The notes beneath the pieces were generated by a model that ran no database searches, was not told the origin of the DNA, and saw only the letters and a program-made list of their open reading frames with translations. Shown one piece after another: positions 1-64,000 of a stretch of DNA of 64,000 nt (within the stretch, counting starts at the first letter, position 1; the number at the start of each line of letters is the position of its first letter). This DNA comes from Candidatus Saccharimonadales bacterium. Lineage in GTDB: Bacteria; Patescibacteriota; Saccharimonadia; Saccharimonadales; UBA10212. Where the stretch lies: the NCBI GenBank assembly GCA_035758565.1, contig DASTXL010000001.1, positions 139,242 through 203,241 on the forward strand, read 5' to 3'. The translations under genes and the position numbers were made by a program.

Positions 1-623
1 TAGTAACCACTCTGACCAAGCGGATGAGCGAAGACTTAGCCGAATATCTGCAAGAGTTAAATATCAAAGTTGCTTACATTCACTCCGAAATCGACACGTT
101 GGAACGCACCGATATTCTTCGCGACTTGCGACTGGGTGTTTACGACGTGCTGGTCGGTATTAACTTGTTGCGTGAAGGCCTGGACTTGCCAGAAGTATCC
201 CTAGTAGCTATCTTGGATGCCGACAAAGAAGGTTTTTTGCGTAGTGAGCAAGCCTTAATCCAGACAGTTGGCCGCGCCGCCCGCCACGAAGAAGGCCGGG
301 TGATTATGTACGCCGATAACATAACCGGTAGCATGAAGCGTACGATTGATGAAACATCCCGTCGCCGCGAGATTCAAAATAAATACAATAACGAGCACGG
401 CATTACGCCGCGCGGCATCCAGCGTGAGATTACTGAAGGTTATTTGCCGCGGTCGGCCAAAGAGGAAGCGCCCAAAGTTGATCTGCGCAAAATCCCTAAA
501 GACGAATATAAACATTTGGTCAAAGATCTAACGGCCCAAATGGATCTGGCGGCGGCCAACCTAGAATTCGAAAAAGCCGCCGAACTGCGCGACCTAATCG
601 AAGAAGTCAAAAGCAAATTATAA
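1..623 (+). CDS. uvrB: Excinuclease ABC subunit B, C-terminal part (5' end outside window)
   Basis: Frame open from window edge (..[15 protein letters not shown]..). Contains [35 protein letters not shown] helicase C-terminal motifs and the terminal [19 protein letters not shown]-type helix. Confidence 0.93.
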
Positions 624-700
624 AGTTTTTGTAACTTGAGGAGCGCTTGCTGCGGGGGTGAGAGTCGCCAATACTGACTCCCACCCCAACCCCTGAAGGT

Positions 701-991
701 CTACGCCGCTTTTACGGCCTTGTAGAACTTCCACCCTCGTATGGGCATGAAGGCAAGCCCGATCACGCCGAGGACGTAGGCCATGAGCGACCCACTCCAG
801 TCCTGGGCGCGAGAACGGTCAGGAAGGTTCGTCAGCATGGCAGCAAAGAATGCCACCACCCCGCAGATGTACCAGACCGCACCGGCGATCTGCCATCCGT
901 GACCGCCCCAGAAGAACGCTGCCGCTTCGACGCCAGTAATGAGCACGGCGGCGAAGACGCTAATCAGAAGATCTTTCTGATGCTGTTGCAT
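701..991 (-). CDS. Small hydrophobic membrane protein (96 aa), unknown function
   Basis: ATG preceded by GGAGGTG (complement of 997-1003) at 5 nt. GC3-rich codons. 3-4 hydrophobic segments. Confidence 0.55.
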   Translation of the reverse strand: MQQHQKDLLISVFAAVLITGVEAAAFFWGGHGWQIAGAVWYICGVVAFFAAMLTNLPDRSRAQDWSGSLMAYVLGVIGLAFMPIRGWKFYKAVKAA

Positions 992-1030
992 GTTTTCACC
1001 TCCTTTCGAGACGAGTCGATTTGCTCGGGG

Positions 1031-1357
1031 CTAGCCGGTGAGGACCGGGGCATGGCTGTCGCCTCGGCGCTCGATCGTGCTGACGATCCACATGGCGCCG
1101 ATGACGACGATGACCGCGAACGCAATGACGACCACGGCGAACAGCCAAAGGGCGTCCTGCACGTTGTCGACGCGTGGCATTCGAGCGCCAGCTTTGTCGA
1201 CCATGTGGCCCGAGACAAGGACCACGACGCCAATGATCGCCCAGAAGGCGGGGACAGCCCACCACGATAGCCGGAAAAGGCCGTACGAGACGGTGACTTC
1301 TGCGGCCAGAACGAACAGCCCGGCGAAGACGAACCATCTTGCGCCTAGGAGTTTCAC
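1031..1357 (-). CDS. Small hydrophobic membrane protein (about 108 aa), unknown function
   Basis: ORF track start at 1366 overlaps the SD itself. The GTG at 1357 lies 8 nt after GGAGG. About 4 hydrophobic segments. Confidence 0.5.
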   Translation of the reverse strand: MKLLGARWFVFAGLFVLAAEVTVSYGLFRLSWWAVPAFWAIIGVVVLVSGHMVDKAGARMPRVDNVQDALWLFAVVVIAFAVIVVIGAMWIVSTIERRGDSHAPVLTG

Positions 1358-1390
1358 TGCTTTCACCTCCTTCCCAAGGTGAGTCAGGGT

Positions 1391-1579
1391 TCATTCACCG
1401 GTGCCCAGAATGAGCACGATGGCGAACGGAACCGCGAACGAAAGGCCGCAGGCTTCCATCAGGTTGTGCGGCCACCCGAAGATGTAGTGCAATGCCGCGA
1501 AGATCGCAGACAAGGGCACTCCTACGACGATTCCCGCCGGAACTGCGACGCTCAGTACGCCCCAATCGTCAGACTCCAT
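1391..1579 (-). CDS. Small hydrophobic membrane protein (about 62 aa), unknown function
   Basis: ATG at 1579 lies 5 nt after GGAGG (complement of 1585-1589). Two hydrophobic segments. Confidence 0.45.
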   Translation of the reverse strand: MESDDWGVLSVAVPAGIVVGVPLSAIFAALHYIFGWPHNLMEACGLSFAVPFAIVLILGTGE

Positions 1580-1779
1580 CTTCACCTCCTTCCGAAGGTG
1601 GATCTAGATTTGCTCCTCAAGTTGCGTCGGCTCCGTAGCGGAGCGGTAGCTTGACGCCTTTGGGAGCACGATAAAGCAAATTATACAATTTTTATAAAAA
1701 TAGGAATACCAGGGAAGAGGGCAGAGTAGTCGCTTCTTGAGTGCCAAAGTTTCCCTTAGCTAAAAATCTAAAGACCGGT

Positions 1780-1815
1780 AAGACCGGCGCGCTCGCTCTT
1801 GAGCGCGCCGGTCTT
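1780..1815 (-). terminator. Perfect 15-bp GC hairpin downstream of the 133-aa gene
   Basis: AAGACCGGCGCGCTC-gctctt-GAGCGCGCCGGTCTT. Confidence 0.6.
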
Positions 1816-1824
1816 CGGGAAGGT

Positions 1825-2226
1825 CTACGCCGTCGCCGGCAGCGCGATGCTTGTCTGCTTGGGACGAGTCGAGAGGAACACCTTCCTCTCGAGATACATC
1901 CTGTCGGCGAGTTCCATCGCTGGCTGCTCGATGTTGCCCCAGGCGTTGAGCTCGTTGACCTCGAGCGCGAACTGCGTCTTGCTCAAGGCGAGTCTCTTGA
2001 CCGACTGGTTGGCGAACAGCGTCGCGATGAACTCGCGCACGTAGCTGTCGAGCTCCTCGAGCCGAATCGGTGCGCCACCGCAGGTCAGCTCGAGCTTGCC
2101 AGAGCCGGTGCGCTGAACGACGATCTCGTCCTTCTTGAAGTGGAAGTGCCCGACGACGGACCTCCGCAGCCCGTACCAGCGAGTGAAGTCGTCCACGCGC
2201 TCGAGCGGCATGCAGTGCTTAGACAC
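1825..2226 (-). CDS. Hypothetical protein (133 aa), GC-rich codon usage
   Basis: GTG start with a G-rich SD-like run about 6 nt upstream. Soluble-looking protein with no motif I recognise. Confidence 0.5.
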   Translation of the reverse strand: MSKHCMPLERVDDFTRWYGLRRSVVGHFHFKKDEIVVQRTGSGKLELTCGGAPIRLEELDSYVREFIATLFANQSVKRLALSKTQFALEVNELNAWGNIEQPAMELADRMYLERKVFLSTRPKQTSIALPATA

Positions 2227-2385
2227 AGCCTACCCCCCTTCTTAAGATGTTTGACTACTCTGCCAGTCATAAAGAAGCCCACTTGCCTAAAGTTAGCCCT
2301 ATGACGCATTAAATCTTAGCACCGTTCAACCAGAAATATAACAGTGATATTTACCACGCTTGTTTGTTATAATTTAAAGAAGATT

Positions 2386-2676
2386 ATGAGCAAACTTACC
2401 CGAGAAGACGTCTTGAAATTGGCGCATTTAAGCAGGCTGAAGTTATCTGAAGAAGAAATAGAAAAGTTTCGTAGCGAGTTATCAGGAATACTTAGCTACG
2501 TTGAACAATTAGATGAAGTGGACGTTGCGGACTTAGCGCCAACCTATCAAGTAACGGGTTTGAAGAACGTCACTAGAAAAGACGAAGTCAAAGATTACGG
2601 CTATAAAATTGAAACATTGTTGTCTAATGCTCCGGCCATTCAAGACAATCAGTTCAAAGTAAAGAGAGTTTTATAA
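2386..2676 (+). CDS. gatC: Asp/Glu-tRNA amidotransferase subunit C
   Basis: MSKLTREDVLKLAHLSRLKLSEEEIEKF.. is typical of GatC. Lies directly upstream of gatA. Extended -10 TGtTATAAT at 2364-2372. Confidence 0.88.
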   Translation: MSKLTREDVLKLAHLSRLKLSEEEIEKFRSELSGILSYVEQLDEVDVADLAPTYQVTGLKNVTRKDEVKDYGYKIETLLSNAPAIQDNQFKVKRVL

Positions 2677-4093: not shown

Positions 4094-4501
4094 ATGACTG
4101 TTATTTTTCTGCTTGGCATAATCGTTTTTGGTGTTTTGGTCCTGATGTTAGTAGCCACGATTGGAAAGCGCCGCTTCGGCCCGTCCGGAGAAAAGTATTT
4201 CCAGGAAAAATGGGTTGAACTTTTAACTCGCGTCAGAACGCCGGAAGGCATGGTATTAGCCGTAATTGACGCGGATAAATTGTTAGACGAAGCCTTACGC
4301 AAAAAACATTACAAAGGCAAAACCACTGGGGAGCGGCTTGTTGCAGCTCAGCGCGACATTAAAGACAACGACTCTGTTTGGTACGCGCATAAATTGCGCA
4401 ATCGCTTGGTACATGAACCGGACGTTAAGCTCAGAAAAAATGAAGCTCAAAATGCATTGGCTGGTTTCCGTGCCTGCCTTAAAGATCTGGGAGTACTTTA
4501 G
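4094..4501 (+). CDS. Membrane-anchored protein with RNxxxH (HEPN-like) motif, unknown function
   Basis: N-terminal TM helix (VIFLLGIIVFGVLVLMLVATI). C-terminal AHKLRNRLVHE matches Rx4H. Abuts the gatA stop and the gatB start with no gaps. Confidence 0.6.
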   Translation: MTVIFLLGIIVFGVLVLMLVATIGKRRFGPSGEKYFQEKWVELLTRVRTPEGMVLAVIDADKLLDEALRKKHYKGKTTGERLVAAQRDIKDNDSVWYAHKLRNRLVHEPDVKLRKNEAQNALAGFRACLKDLGVL

Positions 4502-5929
4502 ATGAGTGATTACTTGCCGACAATCGGAATCGAAACGCACGTTCAGCTAAAGACCAAAACCAAGATGTTTTCGGCTGTGGGCAATGATGCTCGAGACGCG
4601 GCGCCAAATACTTTGATTAGCCACATTGATGTCGGTATGCCTGGCGCTTTGCCGGTTTTGAACGAAAAAGCTTTGGAGCTTGCTTGCCGAGCCGCTTTTG
4701 CACTAAATACTACTCCGCAGAAATTCTCTAAGTTTGAACGCAAGCATTATTTTTATCCGGATTTGCCCAAAGGCTATCAAATTACTCAGTATGAAAACCC
4801 AATTATTATCGGCGGCCATGTAGAATTGCCGGACGGCAAAAAGATCGGCATCACCAGGGCGCACCTGGAAGAAGATGCCGGCAAAAACACTCACCCGGCC
4901 AGTGCTGATTATAGCTTGGTGGATTTGAACCGCGCTGGTACGCCGCTGCTAGAAATTGTCAGCGAGCCGGACATTCATAGTGCCGCTGACGCTAAAGCTT
5001 ACGTACGCGAACTTTATTTACTTATGAAATATGCAGACGTTTCTGATTGCGACCTGTACCTCGGCCACATGCGTTTTGACGTGAATGTCAGCGTTAGCAA
5101 AGATCCCAGCAAACCCGGAATCCGCGCGGAAGTTAAAAACCTGAATAGTTTCCGTAGTGTAGAGGCGGCGATTGAGTACGAAATTAAAAGGCAGACTGAA
5201 CTTTTAGAAAATGGCGAAAAGGTTGTGCAGGAAACCCGCGGCTGGGACGAAGATAAGCAAGTTACAACCAGCCAGCGCAGCAAAGAAGAAGCCGAAGATT
5301 ATCGCTACATGCCCGAACCGGACATCCCCCCAACCGAACTTAGCGATGAATTCATTGAAAATATCAGAAAAGACATGCCCGATCTGCCAAGCTATTACAG
5401 AAAAACGCTGAGCGATATTGGAATTGATAAGAAAGCAACTGAAGATATTGTTGCTATTCCCGACGTAGCTAGAAATGTCGACCTTGTATATCGCTACGAT
5501 GGCAAGTTGAATGCAAAATTCGGCAGACGGATAGCGTTCTTGCTTTTACGCCCACAACCCGAAGAGCCGGACAATACTGACGCAAAAGTCGACATAAGCA
5601 TCAAGAACCTTGTTAAATTATGCCAGATGGCAGAAGACGGACTATTAAGCTCTACGGCCACTAAGGAAATTTTCGATGAGATGCTTATCTCTAAAAATGA
5701 TCCTGAGCTAATTGCAAAAGAAAAGAAACTAATTCAGGTTTCGGATGAAGGGGCGATTGAAGAAATTGTTAAACAAGTCATTGCCGAAAACGAAAAAGCC
5801 GCCAATGATGTTAAGAATGGCGAAATGAAAGCTATCAGCTTTTTGGTCGGCCAGGTCATGGCAAAATCCAAAGGCCAAGCCAATCCGGGTTTAGCTCAGG
5901 CAATAATCAAAAAACAACTGGGGGTATAA
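4502..5929 (+). CDS. gatB: Asp/Glu-tRNA amidotransferase subunit B
   Basis: IGIETHVQL..RKHYFYPDLPKGYQITQ..HLEEDAGK motifs and a C-terminal GatB/YqeY tail. Confidence 0.95.
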   Translation: MSDYLPTIGIETHVQLKTKTKMFSAVGNDARDAAPNTLISHIDVGMPGALPVLNEKALELACRAAFALNTTPQKFSKFERKHYFYPDLPKGYQITQYENPIIIGGHVELPDGKKIGITRAHLEEDAGKNTHPASADYSLVDLNRAGTPLLEIVSEPDIHSAADAKAYVRELYLLMKYADVSDCDLYLGHMRFDVNVSVSKDPSKPGIRAEVKNLNSFRSVEAAIEYEIKRQTELLENGEKVVQETRGWDEDKQVTTSQRSKEEAEDYRYMPEPDIPPTELSDEFIENIRKDMPDLPSYYRKTLSDIGIDKKATEDIVAIPDVARNVDLVYRYDGKLNAKFGRRIAFLLLRPQPEEPDNTDAKVDISIKNLVKLCQMAEDGLLSSTATKEIFDEMLISKNDPELIAKEKKLIQVSDEGAIEEIVKQVIAENEKAANDVKNGEMKAISFLVGQVMAKSKGQANPGLAQAIIKKQLGV

Positions 5930-5930
5930 A

Positions 5931-6824
5931 ATGGCGCAAAAACCAATTAGAAAAGCGGTTATCGCAGCCGCCGGCTTCGGCACACGTTTTTTGCCGCAGA
6001 CCAAAGCGATGCCCAAAGAAATGCTGCCAGTCGTAGATAAACCGATCATTCAGTATGTAGTCGAAGAACTCGTAAACGCCGGAATCGAAGACATCATAGT
6101 CGTTACCGGCTATTCCAAACGGGCGATTGAAGATCATTTTGATAATCCCAGCCAAGACCTTGTTAGCAATCTTAAAAACGGCGGCAAAGACGAGCTTTTA
6201 GATCAAATCAAAAAAATTGCCAACCTCGCGAACTTTGTTTATGTGCGCCAAAAAGGTCCATACGGCAATGCTACGCCGCTTTTGAATGCTGAACATTTGA
6301 TTGGCGGCGAACCTTTTATTTATACATGGGGTGACGATTTCATATTGTCCAGCCCGCCGAGATTTTCGCAATTAGTGAGGGCCTACGATCAGACCAAAGC
6401 TTCGGCAATTTTTGCTTGTTTGCCGGCCAAACACGAAGAAGACTATAAACGCTACGCCTTTGTGGGCGGCAGCGAGAGGCAGGGCCAGTTGTTGCGGATG
6501 GAAAGAATCATAGAAAAACCCGGTAGCCGGGAGTCCTCGCCATCCAATTTAGCCAGTCTGAGCGGTTACGTTTTTGATTCAAAAATCTTTGACTACATAA
6601 AACAGGATTTAGAGAAGCTGGAGCCCAAGCATGAATTAATTTTTCAGCCGTCGGTGCAGCGTATGATGGATGATGGTCTGGACGTTTATGCATGCGAAAT
6701 CGACGGCACGTATTACGACACCGGCAATAAGCTCGAGTACCTTAAAACGGTTGTCGACTTTGCGCTAATGCACGATGATATCAAAGATGACTTTGCCGAC
6801 TATTTGCGCCACTTGACACTGTAG
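5931..6824 (+). CDS. galU: UTP-glucose-1-phosphate uridylyltransferase
   Basis: AAGFGTRFLPQTKAMPKEMLPVVDKPIIQYVVEE N-terminal signature. Confidence 0.9.
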   Translation: MAQKPIRKAVIAAAGFGTRFLPQTKAMPKEMLPVVDKPIIQYVVEELVNAGIEDIIVVTGYSKRAIEDHFDNPSQDLVSNLKNGGKDELLDQIKKIANLANFVYVRQKGPYGNATPLLNAEHLIGGEPFIYTWGDDFILSSPPRFSQLVRAYDQTKASAIFACLPAKHEEDYKRYAFVGGSERQGQLLRMERIIEKPGSRESSPSNLASLSGYVFDSKIFDYIKQDLEKLEPKHELIFQPSVQRMMDDGLDVYACEIDGTYYDTGNKLEYLKTVVDFALMHDDIKDDFADYLRHLTL

Positions 6825-12847: not shown

Positions 12848-12920
12848 CTTAGCTAGATTTTAAAATATTAAACTGTTTATGGCAATCGATCCCAAAACTT
12901 GCAAATTACTTTGTAGGTTT

Positions 12921-13580
12921 TGGGATCGAGGAGACGCCGTAGAGGCGTCTCCGTGCTCGATCCTTCGTTCATGCTCAGGCGCCGTAGTCGGCGATCGTCG
13001 CCTTGGCGTCGGCCATCGCGGTGTACTGCTCACCCGGCTTGTTCGTGTTGCAGAACCAGCGCGGGCGTTCCTCTTGGCCCTTCAGCCACCCCTCCCGCGT
13101 CTCGCGGGTGAGATAGTTGAACGTGACGGCGGCGTGACCAGCTTCCATTGCGTCCTGTAGCTCCGACTGGCCGCTGGCACCCGCGATGGTGCCATCGACC
13201 TTGGTCGAGAAGCCGTAGGTGAAGTCGCCATCGCCTGACTGGGTGAGGTCGACGTAGACGCCGAAGCCTGCCGGCTGTCCGTGGTCGCGGTGGTAGACCG
13301 CCTTGGCGATCGCATTCGGGACAAACCGCTCGCCCTCTGGGCCGATGGCGATCGTCGCCAGCAGCGTGTCGCTGCTGGGTTACCAGAGCGGCGCCATCGG
13401 GTTCAGGAACGCCAGGCCGAGGCTGTCGCGGCTGTACTTGCGGTCGGCGAAGAGCCTCTCCACGTGCTCGGCGCGCAGGACGGAGATGCGATCGACGATT
13501 GCGATCAGCATCTCGTTGGGCACCGTGTGGCTCCATGGATTCTGGAACACACGGACTTGCCGTGCCAACATGTGCACTCT
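12921..13580. other. GC-rich island C
   Basis: 38/60 G+C at 13021-13080 against 25/60 at 13621-13680 (hand counts). Confidence 0.7.
12975..13577 (-). pseudogene. GC-rich gene of unknown function interrupted by an in-frame TAA
   Basis: A single frame with GC3-rich codons runs from the ATG at 13577 (SD AAGGAG 7 nt upstream) to the TGA at 12975-12977. It contains a TAA at 13380-13382 (..NPMAPLW*PSSDTLLATIAIGPEGERF..). Confidence 0.6.
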
Positions 13581-13620
13581 CCTTGTCGAAGGATCGAAAC
13601 GTGCATATTTTACAATAAAA

Positions 13621-17131: not shown

Positions 17132-17160
17132 TTGACAATGTTTATTAATTTTGTTATTAT
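17132..17160 (+). promoter_or_regulatory. Strong sigma70-type promoter
   Basis: TTGACA (17132-17137), a 17-nt spacer, and an extended -10 TGtTATTAT (17152-17160). Confidence 0.65.
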
Positions 17161-17166
17161 ATCGCC

Positions 17167-17760
17167 AACGTCGTGACTTCCGGAGAGCCACGTCTACCCG
17201 GTAGGGTCTAATCTCCGGCGGGTTTGGGAGCCTGATCACCATCAAGGGAGCCAAAACCTGGCCATAACGGAAGATTCCCACTGGCAAGACTTCGGTCTAC
17301 CAGATCTCCGTTCCTGTTAAAGTCGCGAGCTCAGCGCGCAAACATCAGGGTCCTTCGGGATGAGATGCGCCTTCGGGCACTGTCTGAGACGGGTCTTGAG
17401 GAAGACTCGCATTCGCTAGTGCGATATCGAGGGCATCGGCGCGGTGAACCGCAGTCGATGGTCGCACACAGTTCCCGCTGTCCTCTAGTCGTTTTACGGC
17501 TAGGCAGGAACTATTCCTCCTACAAAGCCGGGTTCCACCGAGTGGCGTCGCCTGAGGGCGGCCCGGACGTCCAAGACGTCACTCAACGTGTTCGGGTCGG
17601 TCGGCCTCCAAAGCTGATCGCACAAAAAAGCCGGGGCAAAGGTCCCTCCGGACTCCGCAAGAGAGATCCGGGAAAACCTAGGAGAGGATTGTAGCGACCC
17701 GACGCTGCGAACCTACCTCCCCCCGCTTGGTCTTCGGACCGAGCGGGGCTCTTTTCTTTT
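17167..17760 (+). ncRNA. Unclassified large structured RNA (about 590 nt)
   Basis: Bounded by the promoter above and the terminator at 17721-17760. GC-rich relative to its flanks. Many local stems and four C(UUCG)G tetraloops (17290-17295, 17353-17358, 17371-17376, 17732-17737), plus the stem CATCG..GCGG-tgaa-CCGC..CGATG (17434-17460). The only ORF is an Arg-rich shadow. Confidence 0.6.
17721..17760 (+). terminator. Rho-independent terminator
   Basis: CCCCGCTTGGTC-ttcg-GACCGAGCGGGG (12 bp including one G-U pair) followed by CTCTTTTCTTTT. Confidence 0.8.
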
Positions 17761-62075: not shown

Positions 62076-62396
62076 ATGGCGGCGGTAAGCCCCAACCAGT
62101 TCCAGGAAGTCTATTCTGATATGGGCAGCAATCCGCTGATCAGAGAGGTGTATCACGCTCAGTTCGGCTTTATTCAAATCGAGGTGCCGGAAGGTACCGA
62201 CGAAACCAAGGCTGAGGTGCGTTTTTTGGAGCAAGGCTGGGAACCCTACCAGGCCAATGCCGTTGGTATATCAAGAGAAGGCTTTGTGGCTTCCCTGTCG
62301 GACGAGGGCAGGGTGAGGCAGTTTGCTGCTCTTGTGTTGCACGATCAGTTACAACAACTAGCTAACAATGAACAAAATGAAGAAAGGATTCATTAA
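62076..62396 (+). CDS. Hypothetical protein (106 aa) translationally coupled to rpsJ
   Basis: SD AAGGAG 6 nt upstream. The stop TAA overlaps the rpsJ ATG (TAATG). Confidence 0.5.
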
Positions 62397-62728
62397 TGGC
62401 TGAAGCCAAAGAACAAAACGATGGTAAGCAGCGGATTCGCATTCGCCTGAAGGCTTACGACCACAAAGTAATCGACCAAAGCGCCAAGCAAATTGTAGAT
62501 ACCGCCTTGCGTACTGGCGCCAAGATTGCCGGGCCGATTCCGCTACCGACTCGCAAGAGTACTTTTACGGTGGTTAAAAGCCCGCATGTCTATAAAAAAG
62601 GCCGCGAGCAGTTCGAGATGCGCGTGCACAAACGCCTTATCGACATTACTGATCCAACGCCCAAAACCATCGACAGCCTGATGAATCTCAGCCTGCCGGC
62701 TGGTTGTGACGCCGAAATCAAAATGTAG
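62396..62728 (+). CDS. rpsJ: 30S ribosomal protein S10
   Basis: [36 protein letters not shown]...FTV.KSPHV.K..REQFEMR.H.RLIDI. Confidence 0.97.
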
Positions 62729-62730
62729 TC

Positions 62731-63057
62731 ATGAAGATTGAAGACTTAGGCAGATCGTTTTCAGGGGATGGTGACGTAGTCCTGAGGCGGTTTGCTACTT
62801 CGTCGCCACTTAGCGTAGGACTTCTATCAACCGAGTTAGACAATCTAGTGGACACTCCTGCGGAAGTTACTGCGCAAACAGATGATTCCACATGGATTAT
62901 CGGATCCATAAGTTTGGGCAAAATATTCATCGATTTTGTTGATGTACGCACTGAAAGCGAAAGGTTACCAATTGAAATAGTGGCCTCACGCGATAAGATC
63001 AAGCAAGTGTTTACTTCTGATGAATCGGTCGTAGAGCTTGTGACCTCGCTGATGTGA
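62731..63057 (+). CDS. Hypothetical acidic protein (108 aa) where rplC is expected
   Basis: ORF starting 2 nt after the rpsJ stop. No SD and no motif. Confidence 0.4.
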
Positions 63058-63145
63058 GGAAAGTCACAGCGACGATTCAGCTTCGTAAGGTTAAATATAA
63101 GCGTGGGCGGAACTAAAAAACTGAGACATGTTTATAAGTCCGCTG

Positions 63146-63175
63146 AAAAAGAACCCGAGATGACGGGTTCTTTTT
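63146..63175. terminator. Bidirectional terminator
   Basis: AAAAAGAACCCG-agatga-CGGGTTCTTTTT forms a perfect 12-bp stem with A/T runs on both sides. Confidence 0.75.
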
Positions 63176-63379
63176 AGTTTTAATTTATCTATTAAAAAAT
63201 TAGCAACTATCCCGTGAGCGTGGTCACAGCTTAATGGTTTTAAGCTTTTAAAATAATAGGTTGCTCTGGAGATAGTTCAGAGCAAAGGTAGCCGAGCTTT
63301 ATCAACCGAAAGGAGGATTTTGCGGCTACAACACAAGCTATCGTTTCTCAACCATCTACCCTGTAAGGAGGGTATAGAC

Positions 63380-63940
63380 GTGAGTGAAGGAAGACTGGCC
63401 GGGATCCTGGGCGTTGCCTGCCGCGATCTGCGTGAGGGTCGCAACCTGCACGCCCTGCAGCTGTTCGGTTCGCTGGTGGGGGTGGAGTTCACCTACCAGC
63501 GGGACGCCCGACTGGGCGAGGCAACGGCCTTGGCTCGCATGGGTCGCTTCTCGGAGGCCGAGGACAAGCTCCAGCAGATCGTGAACGACTACTCGGAGCG
63601 GACGGTCTTCAAGGCCGACTCGCTCCGGGCACTGGCCGAGGTGCGGATCGTTCTGGGCAACCTCGAGGGGATCGACGACATCCTCGAGGAGGCCGCCCAG
63701 ATCTACCAGATCCACAGCTTCACCCGGCCCTGCGGTGCGATCGTGCATCTGCAGGCCCTGGTGGCCATGCGCCGCGGTGACATGGACGAAGCCGTGGAGA
63801 AGATCCGGTGGGCCACGACGCTCACCGAGATCAAGATCCCCGACGTCGTGCCGGCGGGCTTCGGCAGCATCGAGCCCCTGCACGACGGAACCGTGTCCGA
63901 GTCGACCGAGCTCATGACGCTGGTGACCAGCGCTGGCTAG
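63380..63940 (+). CDS. GC-rich helical-repeat (TPR-like) protein, island D
   Basis: GTG start 8 nt after AAGGAGG. GC3-rich codons. ALARMGRFSEAEDKLQQIV-type repeats. All overlapping ORFs look like shadows. Confidence 0.55.
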   Translation: MSEGRLAGILGVACRDLREGRNLHALQLFGSLVGVEFTYQRDARLGEATALARMGRFSEAEDKLQQIVNDYSERTVFKADSLRALAEVRIVLGNLEGIDDILEEAAQIYQIHSFTRPCGAIVHLQALVAMRRGDMDEAVEKIRWATTLTEIKIPDVVPAGFGSIEPLHDGTVSESTELMTLVTSAG

Positions 63941-64000
63941 GAGGCGGTAGCCCTAAAAACCCGGGTGGGATGGCGACCGCGGCTTTTACATAGCGCGGCA

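Follow-up and report, generated by a model that had tools for sequence, protein, structure and literature searches.

A GC-rich membrane-protein cassette bracketed by inverted repeats, and candidate relatives of it, at the uvrB-gatC slot of soil Saccharimonadales

Results

A GC-rich three-gene cassette lies antisense to uvrB

We analysed a 64,000-nt stretch (the window) of contig DASTXL010000001.1, which belongs to a Candidatus Saccharimonadales metagenome-assembled genome (MAG), in agreement with the Saccharibacteria-type genome supposed in a preliminary description made from the letters alone. Positions 645-1660, here called block 1, lie antisense to and convergent with uvrB, and the minus strand carries the three consecutive ORFs of 62, 108 and 96 aa that had been described there (p62, p108 and p96, Table 1). 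The cassette had been placed between uvrB and gatC, which holds for its uvrB side but not for its gatC side: positions 1661-1789 form an AT-rich spacer, and beyond it comes another GC-rich unit (1790-2235, in block 2).

The reported jump in composition stands at 37/60 G+C for 1081-1140, with a mean of 35.9/60 for block-1 lines, but native lines in the window average 29/60 rather than the 25/60 first given. GC3 of the three genes ranges from 0.73 to 0.81, compared with 0.51 ± 0.04 in native genes (n=41), and block 1 differs from the remaining window by a tetranucleotide distance of z=8.1, so that its composition marks it as foreign. With p128 of block 2 included GC3 spans 0.73-0.90, and the two tetranucleotide values are z=8.1 and 6.8.

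Hydropathy predicts two transmembrane (TM) segments in p62 and three in both p108 and p96, consistent with the hydrophobic products first proposed. An annotated 111-aa form of p108 begins at 1366, and the exact p96 protein was also called on a Logan contig. Each ORF does follow a near-identical, strong ribosome-binding module, a perfect 9-10-nt Shine-Dalgarno sequence (SD, AAGGAGGTGA) compared with no more than 6 nt at 40 native starts; the SD complement TTCACCTCCTT occurs three times on the plus strand. The GC hairpin at the end of the block was also confirmed, its 12-bp stem (655-666 / 676-687) containing one G-T position and no T-run following it; two relatives, L002 and L005 (L numbers denote relatives compared in this analysis), carry analogous hairpins of different sequence. 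Other long ORFs had been dismissed as shadows, and we agree for the 132-aa Arg-rich ORF (GC3 0.44), although one gene caller annotated it. Searches of Pfam, PHROGs, NCBIfam and PADLOC with p62, p108, p96 and p128 gave nothing above noise. The three membrane proteins may form a small accessory complex, with a possible envelope, host-interface or toxin/immunity-type role.

A 25-nt direct repeat of the uvrB end flanks block 1 (610-634 / 1673-1697), its copies identical at 22 of 25 positions, compared with at most 18/25 for the best match when 2000 segments of 1751 nt were drawn at random from the window. The preliminary description had overlooked both this repeat and the 12-nt inverted repeats around the two blocks.

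An abrupt change of composition in a short-read MAG could arise from high-GC reads mis-joined to a Saccharimonadales contig. We consider such a chimera barely conceivable: an independent Logan assembly is base-identical across 10,991 nt covering all junctions, over 10 MAGs, produced by different projects with different assemblers, show this architecture at the locus, and the arms of the inverted repeats, which at 12 nt are well below assembler k-mer sizes, join native and GC-rich sides.

Table 1. Features of the uvrB-gatC region and sister islets, in window coordinates
Feature	Position	Strand	Basis or remark
uvrB 3' part, native, convergent with the cassette	24-623	+	ORF; Pfam UvrB families on the full gene of the Logan contig
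Direct-repeat copy 1, true uvrB end plus 11 nt, AAAGCAAATTATAAAGTTTTTGTAA	610-634		22/25 identity to 1673-1697
Block-1 bracket arm AACTTGAGGAGC, 3' arm of minus-strand transcript	633-644		10 nt past uvrB stop
12-bp GC hairpin downstream of p96, no U tail	655-687	-	Read from sequence
p96, 96-aa membrane protein, 3 predicted TM segments, basic C-terminus	701-991	-	GC3 0.73; SD AAGGAGGTGA
p108, 108-aa membrane protein, 3 predicted TM segments, GTG start	1031-1357	-	GC3 0.81
p62, 62-aa two-TM protein	1391-1579	-	GC3 0.73; motif WPH[ND]L..AC..F.VP conserved
Block-1 bracket arm GCTCCTCAAGTT, read as 5' arm AACUUGAGGAGC in the minus-strand transcript	1612-1623		27 nt upstream of p62 SD
Block-1 leader with hairpin GGCTCCG..CGGAGCC (conserved in L005)	1624-1697	-	Sequence; L005 comparison
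Direct-repeat copy 2, relic uvrB end, TAA to TAC	1673-1697		Within leader region; repeat comparison
Putative extended -10 TGTATAAT of the presumed block-1 promoter	Reverse complement of 1680-1687	-	Sequence
Block-2 bracket arm GGCAGAGTAGTC, 3' arm of minus-strand transcript	1720-1731		Perfect 12-nt inverted repeat with 2253-2264
Perfect 15-bp GC hairpin downstream of p128	1780-1815	-	Inverted repeat
p128, soluble 128-aa orphan protein	1825-2211	-	GC3 0.90; alternative GTG start at 2226
Block-2 bracket arm GACTACTCTGCC, 5' arm of minus-strand transcript	2253-2264		121 nt upstream of gatC ATG
Predicted divergent promoter region: block-2 minus-strand promoter and U-rich leader; gatC promoter	2265-2385		Prediction
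gatC, native	2386-2676	+	ORF
Islet 2, 11-nt bracket TCGATCCTTCG	12957-13597; arms 12957-12967 / 13587-13597	-	Inverted repeat
Islet 3, GC3-rich 186-aa TPR-like gene between rpsJ and rplC	63380-63940	+	No bracket of 8 nt or longer

Inverted repeats bracket the GC-rich islets and co-vary across genomes

Both blocks are bracketed by sharp-edged, perfect inverted repeats (633-644 / 1612-1623 and 1720-1731 / 2253-2264). For random pairs of 120-nt segments of the window, the probability of a perfect inverted repeat of at least 12 nt is 0.0003, and of at least 11 nt 0.004. Across the islet class the arms measure 10-15 nt, and in this genome 12, 12, 11 and 13 nt, with four distinct sequences within about 70 kb. 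Among 17 islets defined by GC only, with the bracket not used as a criterion, 12 have a bracket of at least 10 nt; those lacking one are islet 3 of the window, where a search for repeats of 8 nt or longer found none, and four others. Of 26 inserts with native composition in this slot, not one is bracketed (best 6-9 nt), and we rejected on this count the idea that the bracket is a property of the slot itself.

The arms co-vary. Both sides had changed, in a compensatory manner, in 13 of 21 pairs across genomes, a result that none of 500 shuffles matched and for which slid controls gave 2-7; orthologous, co-varying block-2 arms are present in L008, L011, L016, L040 and L054. Folding of full-length RNAs predicts arm pairing with a probability of 0.86-0.99 and in every minimum free energy structure, the value for block 1 being 0.98 in a 1051-nt RNA.

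Anatomy is uniform in 14 islets, which share one orientation with the 5' arm and SD always promoter-proximal. Relatives have aligned minus-strand TTGACA-17-TAnnnT promoters upstream of the 5' arm, of which the window's predicted copy is degenerate (TTGAAC), and a gatC promoter is predicted on the plus strand at 2344-2373. The 3' arm lies 8-50 nt past the GC hairpin, and would fall outside the mRNA if these hairpins terminate efficiently. In L040, L054 and L082 an arm overlaps the stop or last codons of uvrB. The bracket helix does not overlap the SD, and no simple translational switch is therefore evident. Promoters, RNA ends and the closing helix are predictions throughout.

Several further candidates were discarded. 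G.U extensions seem more frequent on the uvrB/gatC strand (17 versus 1 extra pairs), a bias that flank base composition predicts and that was dropped as evidence of strand; extension of the arms to helices longer than 20 bp was rejected for inconsistent duplexfold output. In L066, a 14-nt inverted repeat lying between uvrB and the coding sequence of the cargo is within chance expectation for 900 kb. The left flank of type-2 islets gave no significant tblastn match that would make it a relic of the 290-aa plus-strand gene of L014, L026 and L027.

Toxin-like, mobile and split-hairpin readings of the bracket

Small hydrophobic products between complementary transcript ends recall a killer module, either holin-like or of type I toxin-antitoxin kind, whose mRNA a long-distance 5'-3' interaction would hold inactive until its 3' end is trimmed. 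Class I holins have three TM segments and a basic C-terminus, a topology that p96 resembles. The perfect 12-bp complementarity and high predicted pairing of the block-1 arms also fit, as do the anti-SD-like 3' arm (GCUCCUC) and the SD-like 5' arm (GAGGAG) of type 1. Long-distance 5'-3' interactions with activation at the 3' end are documented for hok and aapA mRNAs (PMC6733600, PMC5416894), and in the islets, as in hok/Sok and aapA/IsoA, co-variation keeps the pairing. However, block 1 is polycistronic, with three cistrons encoding proteins of 62-108 aa and two or three TM segments rather than one peptide of under 60 aa, 27 nt separate the end of its 5' arm from the p62 SD downstream, which is left free, and the same bracket type elsewhere encloses soluble cargo of 94-207 aa. 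Promoter prediction gave no convincing plus-strand promoter for an antisense RNA inside block 1, and no Rfam family matched in 560-2420. Neither endolysin gene nor phage context is present nearby, and PADLOC, PHROG and Pfam returned no match. A killer module is improbable in our view.

The arms could instead act in DNA, as recombination sites that make the islet an invertible ON/OFF segment or a non-autonomous mobile cassette of MIC/MITE-like or integron-like kind. Mobile insertion cassettes (MICs), MITEs and mycobacteriophage MPME are short, with terminal inverted repeats of about 11 bp, few small ORFs and no recognisable transposase, all of which the islets share, and the repeats are tied exclusively to cargo of foreign composition. 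Integron cassettes are likewise units of 0.4-1 kb with orphan ORFs. In attC sites the R boxes are conserved and the L boxes variable, and type-2 arms similarly join variable complementary extensions to a core (GCAGAG/CTCTGC) that is conserved; in both, complementarity is conserved rather than sequence. The direct repeat around block 1 would also be in keeping with recombination.

We nevertheless find this reading improbable. The repeat differs from site to site, with the four arm sequences noted above in one genome, no target-site duplication abuts the arms, and an arm can be native coding sequence, as in L027. All 14 islets have the same promoter-proximal orientation, unlike invertible segments, and no integrase or invertase was found within 10 kb on either side; Pfam likewise found no recombinase, transposase or reverse transcriptase family within 10 kb of the block. 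IntI, attI and Pc are absent nearby. In contrast to attC, a compact site of about 57-141 bp (R''-L''...L'-R') at the 3' end of a cassette, the arms are separated by 0.4-1 kb, one at either end of the cargo, and each islet has its own predicted promoter instead of joining a like-oriented array that shares one site type.

Some insertion sequences enter hairpin loops, and IS1397 targets palindromic units. By this precedent the arms might be the halves of a native hairpin, such as a uvrB terminator, into whose loop foreign DNA was inserted; an arm 0-50 nt past the uvrB stop is where a terminator would be expected, and arm co-variation could then be older than the insertion. In L027, however, the arm GAGCAATACAAC is inside the conserved ..AEQYN.. 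coding sequence, and L026 has the same 12-mer in its coding sequence with neither cargo nor a partner arm nearby. Because the L027 arm belongs to a conserved native gene, the opposite arm must have been matched to native sequence. Furthermore, 10-15-bp hairpins were absent from all 17 empty sites inspected, and within the arms the cargo is flanked on either side by AT-rich native-like sequence. A split hairpin is very improbable on these grounds.

Related cassettes occupy the same slot, and no donor was found

Comparison of the uvrB-gatC junction among relatives, as first suggested, found the slot empty (26-94 nt) in many and occupied by varied genes in others. In L002 a homologous GC-rich cassette of three membrane-protein genes (GC3 0.77-0.81) converges on a UvrB C-terminus and shares a flanking 14-mer with block 1, and L005 carries a related cassette between the same arms; the arm at 633-644 recurs in both. 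p62 matches p71 of L002 with E=2e-17, and p51 of L002 matches p45 of L005 with E=1e-3. These three genomes are the only ones known to contain this cassette family. The cargo genes of L008, L011 and L054 are mutually related, and Pfam gave nothing for 10 further cargo proteins. Homologous cargo has a GC3 of 0.64-0.81 in genomes whose native GC3 is 0.35-0.56, and cargo GC stays at about 0.59-0.68 whatever the GC of the host genome (0.37-0.54).

HMMER searches of 1.84 billion representative proteins with all four islet proteins returned only the queries themselves, three artefacts caused by repeats, and two relatives of p62. These two are 71-72 aa long and lie on low-GC contigs, one of them in the homologous cassette at the uvrB end. 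Word-indexed searches of 5.8 billion proteins gave self matches only. We found nothing by blastn of the whole region against phages (50,697 records) and plasmids (72,556), by tblastn of p128 and other cargo proteins against phages, by tblastn of p62, p108, p96 and p128 against the 72,556 plasmids, or in four IMG/VR scans. A metagenome protein-pattern scan for the p62 family was also negative, and a metagenome DNA scan for the type-1 leader and arm gave eight chance matches within coding regions of unrelated contigs, of which six are high-GC. An exact GatC look-up matched only the same contig and yielded no population variants. For p128, the AF2 model has a pLDDT of 57 and Foldseek found no significant match in the PDB.

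The preliminary description had proposed a transfer from an actinobacterial host or its phage; in this view the transfer was recent, and GC3, GGAGG sites and the U-less hairpin are unameliorated donor signals. High-GC Gram-positives typically have GGAGG sites and U-less 'I-shaped' terminators, the composition and expression signals of the block are indeed strongly foreign, and the cargo GC is independent of that of the host genome. The islet-2 gene (12975-13577; about 200 aa, GC3 0.86-0.88, with an in-frame TAA at 13380-13382) has distant homologues in Streptomyces and Streptantibioticus (28-33% identity, E=2e-10), and an ultimately actinobacterial origin of the islet class is possible in light of these. 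For block 1 itself the proposed donor found no support: no homologue of p62, p108, p96 or p128 was found in Actinomycetota or other high-GC organisms among the 1.84 billion representatives, or among the phages (searched with p128 by tblastn and with the whole region by blastn), plasmids and IMG/VR sequences, and the sole p62 relatives are those on low-GC contigs. Homologous cassettes at the same locus with no closer match in the donor group, which the preliminary description had held to speak against transfer, do occur in L002 and, as a related form, L005, although with three known genomes the family cannot be called widespread and many relatives are empty. The p62 family retains high GC3 at 39-49% amino-acid identity, which fits one recent transfer poorly, and such a transfer leaves the co-varying brackets unaccounted for. 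We consider it unlikely.

Discussion

These data lead us to favour, tentatively and at somewhat less than even confidence, the reading that block 1, together with block 2 next to it, belongs to a class of micro-islands that recurs in soil Saccharimonadales: accessory transcription units, endemic to the lineage, with an RNA closed from 5' to 3' end. On its own strand, each unit runs from a predicted sigma-70-type promoter through a leader of about 50-70 nt to the 5' bracket arm and, 10-35 nt later, a very strong SD, followed by between one and three orphan ORFs rich in GC3, a GC hairpin lacking a U tail, and the 3' arm, an exact reverse complement of the 5' arm. The arms would pair in the transcript to close a 5'-3' panhandle, which together with GC3-rich codons, the 10-nt SD and the GC hairpin may yield an unusually stable and strongly initiated mRNA, shielded from convergent uvrB transcription. 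Recombination at the 3' end of uvrB may have brought in block 1; another Saccharimonadales is its most likely source, in preference to direct transfer from an actinobacterium.

We found no description of this bracketed GC-rich layout in the literature, and the known systems closest to it differ from it. Long-range complementary flanks form a closing stem around 0.5-3-kb RNAs in the processing stalks and intervening sequences of rRNA operons, as complementary flanks are predicted to do in the islets, whose stems are however only 10-15 bp and enclose protein-coding RNA; we know of no RNase III dependence of islet stems. Phage morons are independent transcription units added between conserved genes (PMC3594210), and like them the islets combine a promoter, one or more genes and a terminator-like hairpin (signals that are predicted for the islets) in a self-contained unit between conserved syntenic genes, with composition unlike that of the neighbours and orphan accessory cargo. 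In contrast to morons, the islets lie in a bacterial chromosome, flanked by uvrB, gatCAB, dnaE and pentose-phosphate genes and giving no phage matches, recur at an orthologous chromosomal slot across genomes, and have co-varying inverted-repeat brackets, which morons lack.

A more far-reaching interpretation, to which we give little credence at present, is that soil Saccharimonadales have an undescribed way to install or maintain foreign-type genes, placing GC3-rich ORFs with a maximal SD behind resident promoters and closing each unit with sequence copied in inverted form from its far flank. The copy would arise by templating at insertion, as a 'target-site inverted duplication' that would amount to new integration chemistry, or else be selected for hyper-stable panhandle mRNAs. 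In its boldest version, codons, SD and terminator may be tuned to a high-GC host in which the closed RNAs or their products act.

Saccharibacteria are episymbionts with tiny genomes, and the genes they add and keep therefore inform on life on their hosts. For such genes, the call that GC-rich sequence means horizontal transfer from the host can be replaced by a reproducible structural rule, namely a micro-operon of foreign composition that has a promoter of its own, an extremely strong SD, a hairpin lacking a U tail and a co-varying inverted repeat that joins its two ends, and that recurs at one conserved slot in more than 10 genomes. Homologues that share less than 50% amino-acid identity keep a GC3 of 0.7-0.9, and 15 billion proteins yielded no high-GC reservoir; this persistence challenges the logic of amelioration, the standard means to date and source transfers, although a hidden high-GC reservoir is possible. 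If the closing helix is functional, it would allow the closure of a whole mRNA from 5' to 3' end to be tested outside toxin-antitoxin systems, and would offer a new, easily searchable signature for the accessory genes of the candidate phyla radiation (CPR).

GC-rich units between uvrB and gatC

Between the end of uvrB (623) and the start of gatC (2386), GC content rises to 0.59-0.64 over approximately 650-1600, which confirms and extends the preliminary description of a GC-rich block at this position (block 1, about 645-1660, encoding the minus-strand proteins p62, p108 and p96). A repeated count returned the same 37/60 G+C at 1081-1140, although native lines averaged 29/60 and not the 25/60 first given. 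Block 1 is compositionally foreign, as had been claimed, with GC3 of 0.73 for p62, 0.81 for p108 and 0.73 for p96 compared to 0.51±0.04 across 41 native genes, and a tetranucleotide distance of z=8.1. GC3 periodicity picks out the three ORFs as genuine coding frames, and the long competing ORF (132 aa, Arg-rich, GC3 0.44) behaves as the shadow it was taken for, though one gene caller annotates it. The products are as hydrophobic as described, with 2, 3 and 3 predicted TM segments for p62, p108 and p96, and the stronger ribosome-binding sites were likewise borne out: a perfect 9-10 nt AAGGAGGTGA precedes each ORF, versus at most 6 nt in 40 native genes. Beyond block 1, an AT-rich spacer leads to a second GC-rich unit, block 2. 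Word-indexed protein searches matched the islet proteins only to the NCBI records of this Candidatus Saccharimonadales MAG itself, VFT49_00805, _00810 and _00815, on a 483-kb contig. The genes for p96 and the block-2 protein p128 are unrelated apart from a 14-nt direct repeat at their stop codons.

Features of the GC-rich islets and neighbouring regions (window coordinates unless L085, the DNA just beyond the window, is named)
Feature	Position	Strand	Description
Block-1 bracket	633-644 / 1612-1623		AACTTGAGGAGC and complement; perfect 12-nt inverted repeat
Block-1 hairpin	655-687		12 bp, without U tail, as described earlier (read from sequence)
Block-1 candidate promoter	1680-1687	minus	TGTATAAT, the reverse complement; ~50 nt upstream of 5' arm
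Direct repeat	695-708 / 1819-1832		GAAGGTCTACGCCG, identical 14 nt; stop-codon regions of p96 and p128
Block-2 bracket	1720-1731 / 2253-2264		GGCAGAGTAGTC; differs from block-1 bracket
Block-2 hairpin	1780-1815		perfect, 15 bp
Block 2	1790-2235	minus	GC3 0.90; tetranucleotide z=6.8; soluble 128-aa protein (p128)
Hairpin beside islet 2	12886-12928		perfect 11-bp native hairpin, GATCCCAAAAC...GTTTTGGGATC
Islet 2	12,957-13,597		11-nt bracket
Islet-2 gene	12975-13577	minus	~200 aa; single in-frame TAA at 13380-13382
ORF-free region	17150-17750		between rplS and SDR gene; ~600 nt, GC ~0.60
Islet 3	63,380-63,940		GC-rich, TPR-like
Islet 4	L085 2616-3026		13-nt bracket TTCGGCAAGTAGC; very small TM ORFs (29 and 43 aa)

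The in-frame TAA means that the islet-2 gene is either a pseudogene or read through; four copies of the heptamer TCGATCC/GGATCGA lie around the boundaries of this islet. Islets 3 and 4 fall between rpsJ and rplC, which are normally adjacent and here lie approximately 2.8 kb apart (window 62396-64000 and L085 1-3460), together with a 108-aa orphan ORF, a KGG-repeat stress protein and a 190-aa minus-strand gene. The ORF-free region probably encodes a divergent structured RNA; no Rfam family reached its gathering score (best Atu_C7, 24.8 bits versus 45).

Relatives of the cassette and the question of a donor

The preliminary description had proposed that block 1 was transferred from an Actinomycetota host or its phage, and had named orthologous GC-rich cassettes widespread at the same locus in related Patescibacteria, without closer actinobacterial or phage homologues, as evidence to the contrary. 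p62, p108, p96 and p128 matched nothing in Pfam, PHROGs, NCBIfam or PADLOC. Run in full against 1.84 billion representative proteins, HMMER with the four proteins concatenated returned four self matches, three repeat-driven artefacts and two true p62 relatives of 71 and 72 aa (45-49% identity), and a p62-family profile found no further member among 5.8 billion clusters. The region had no blastn match in 50,697 phage and 72,556 plasmid records; tblastn matched neither p128 and other cargo proteins to phages nor any of the four proteins to plasmids, and relatives of the block-1 and block-2 proteins were absent from four IMG/VR scans. An actinobacterial or phage donor for the block-1 cassette is unsupported by these searches, in which no high-GC reservoir was detectable.

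The surroundings of the two p62 relatives decide the matter. L002, a contig of 900 nt that comes from another run, encodes p71 (E=2e-17 to p62) followed by a 51-aa one-TM protein (E=1e-3 to p45 of locus L005) and a 106-aa protein with three TM segments; GC here is 0.60-0.67 and GC3 0.77-0.81. Its 3' flank codes EFEKAADLRDLISEIKAKI*, a UvrB C-terminus, convergent on the cassette, and it shares with the window the 14-mer GCGCTCCTCAAGTT 10 nt past the GC hairpin. L002 shows, in another Saccharimonadales, that a homologous cassette occupies this site and has stayed GC-rich while diverging, in essence the contrary evidence that had been named, with the cassette family seen in only three genomes. 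The p72 relative (L003 and L004) is a locally GC-elevated gene with GC3 of 0.64, compared to 0.35-0.39 for the other genes of its contig. Homologues of the p62 family keep GC3 of 0.64-0.81 at only 39-49% identity. Islet cargo is diverse and orphan overall, with partial homology within one site type; for example, proteins of 207 aa (L008), 114 aa (L011) and 124 aa (L054) are mutually related (E between 1e-20 and 1e-5). Only the islet-2 protein has homologues outside the lineage, and these distant Streptomyces and Streptantibioticus (megaplasmid) proteins (28-33% identity, E=2e-10) count against a purely endemic view; an actinobacterial or phage donor may still lie behind the islet class as a whole.

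The recurrence of this architecture at the equivalent locus in more than 10 MAGs, which come from other projects and other assemblers, makes an assembly chimera very unlikely. The independent Logan assembly of SRR25158471 also agrees with the window without a single difference throughout their 10,991-base overlap, which takes in all of the junctions described here.

Inverted repeats bracket GC-rich islets

The order uvrB-gatC is kept in approximately 70 of 80 Saccharimonadales loci. In about 22 the gap is 26-94 nt, comprising the stop codon, a TATAAT/TATACT promoter and gatC, and in the remainder 0.2-4.7 kb are filled with varied genes, none homologous to the window's four proteins. L050 and L066 (~5560-6000) have a gene of native composition (~120 aa) behind the minus-strand TTGACA promoter that diverges from gatC, and the promoter therefore predates the GC-rich cargo.

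The brackets of the window, each a perfect short inverted repeat with one arm on either side of an islet, are far above chance expectation (P=0.0003 for 12 nt or more and 0.004 for 11 nt or more, from random 120-nt segment pairs 0.5-1 kb apart within the window). When the window and 83 loci, together 900 kb, were scanned for every perfect inverted repeat of at least 11 nt, the pairs with the largest enclosed GC excess fell almost entirely between uvrB and gatC, and their arm on the promoter side lay 113-137 nt before the gatC ATG; a direct-repeat control gave no such enrichment. Bracketed junction loci include L040 and L054 (15 nt), L005 and L082 (13 nt), L027 and L034 (12 nt), L008 and L016 (11 nt) and L011 (10 nt). 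Among 17 islets chosen by GC alone, a set that leaves out a natively GC-rich gatA stretch and an RNA-like region, 12 carry brackets of at least 10 nt and five carry none, compared to 0/26 native-composition inserts at the same slot with an inverted repeat above 9 nt (p ~4e-7, hypergeometric).

On the cargo strand, the 14 bracketed islets are all laid out alike: a sigma-70-type promoter divergent from the gatC promoter (TTGACA-17-TAnnnT in L011, L016, L054, L040, L034, L027 and L008); a U-rich leader of ~50-70 nt and the 5' arm; 10-35 nt, a GGAGG-type SD and GC3-rich ORF(s); a GC hairpin without U tail; the 3' arm 8-100 nt on; and, 0-50 nt past it, the stop codon of a convergent native gene. 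The window's own islet promoters are predictions, on which a simple promoter scanner made no call; the position in L005 homologous to the block-1 candidate has TTGACA and GATAACAAT.

Arms are matched to native sequence

Arm sequence is conserved by site type, with type-1 arms in the window, L002 and L005 and type-2 arms (core GCAGAG/CTCTGC) in the window, L008, L011, L016, L040 and L054. Type-2 extensions vary by genome in both arms together (TAGTC, CATAC, TTAA, or outward TAAGAAAA / TAAAACGTA), and an A to C core change in L054 is also compensated on the opposite arm. In an anchored alignment, 13/21 pairs had both-sided changes, a count reached by 0/500 column shuffles and compared to 2-7 in slid registers, the tested structure having come from the very sequences tested. 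In thermodynamic folds of full-length islets (470-1050 nt), arm pairing probability was 0.86-0.99 and the arm helix was in the MFE for 13/13 islets tested, on either strand. An apparent G.U excess on the uvrB/gatC strand, considered as a sign of the helix strand, was traced to the base composition of the flanks.

Neither transposon termini nor the halves of an ancestral hairpin fit the arms well: the arms differ among the four islets of a single genome, and no target duplication abuts them. One L027 arm (GAGCAATACAAC) falls within a native gene, in its conserved ..AEQYN.. coding sequence, and L026 carries the identical 12-mer with neither cargo nor partner arm. In L040, L054 and L082, an arm runs into the stop or final codons of uvrB. 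Because these arms sit inside native coding or stop sequence, the unconstrained arm, beside the cargo 5' UTR, has been matched to the constrained native one, pointing to selection for pairing or a templated copying step. Inversion of the islet between its arms, as a switch, is unlikely given the promoter-proximal orientation of 14/14 units and the absence of recombinase families within 10 kb.

How block 1 may have arrived at the uvrB end

The last 14 nt of uvrB together with the next 11 nt (610-634) have a second copy at 1673-1697, identical at 22/25 positions, compared to at most 18/25 in random 1751-nt window segments (2000 trials). Measured from the type-2 arm, this second copy occupies the position of the uvrB end in L011, L016 and L008, and it has lost the uvrB stop (TAA to TAC). 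The stop region (616-623, ..AAATTATAA) already contains a -10 box, TTATAAT, in antisense, and on the minus strand the same change supplies the TG of the extended -10 facing the cassette. In L005, the closest relative, a relic uvrB-like end lies beside the type-1 arm, and a native-composition trypsin-like protease gene (4214-5293) separates relic and type-1 unit from the real uvrB, which indicates that insertion at the 3' end of uvrB has happened more than once. Most simply, a unit already tied to a uvrB end would have integrated by recombination within this short shared sequence, which suggests exchange between Saccharimonadales genomes.

A possible role for end-closed messages

Tentatively, we favor a view of the islets as accessory transcription units endemic to the lineage, with arms that would close each RNA 5'-to-3'. 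Their GC3-rich codons, maximal SD, GC hairpin and end-closure would add up to a coherent plan for a message that is very stable and strongly initiated, placed convergent to an essential gene. The closest documented analogue is the long-distance 5'-3' interaction of the hok and aapA toxin mRNAs (PMC6733600), a resemblance that would fit block 1 as a type I toxin module; however, this is improbable, because the islet helix, unlike that of hok and aapA, leaves the SD uncovered, and the same bracket elsewhere encloses soluble cargo. The Patescibacteria HGT literature, as far as searchable, holds no account of such islets, which are akin to known morons, end-paired mRNAs and cassette systems. The islets are of interest mainly for their architecture, a GC3-rich micro-operon closed by an inverted repeat, and in block 1 the products would be three small polytopic membrane proteins, probably acting jointly in the envelope.
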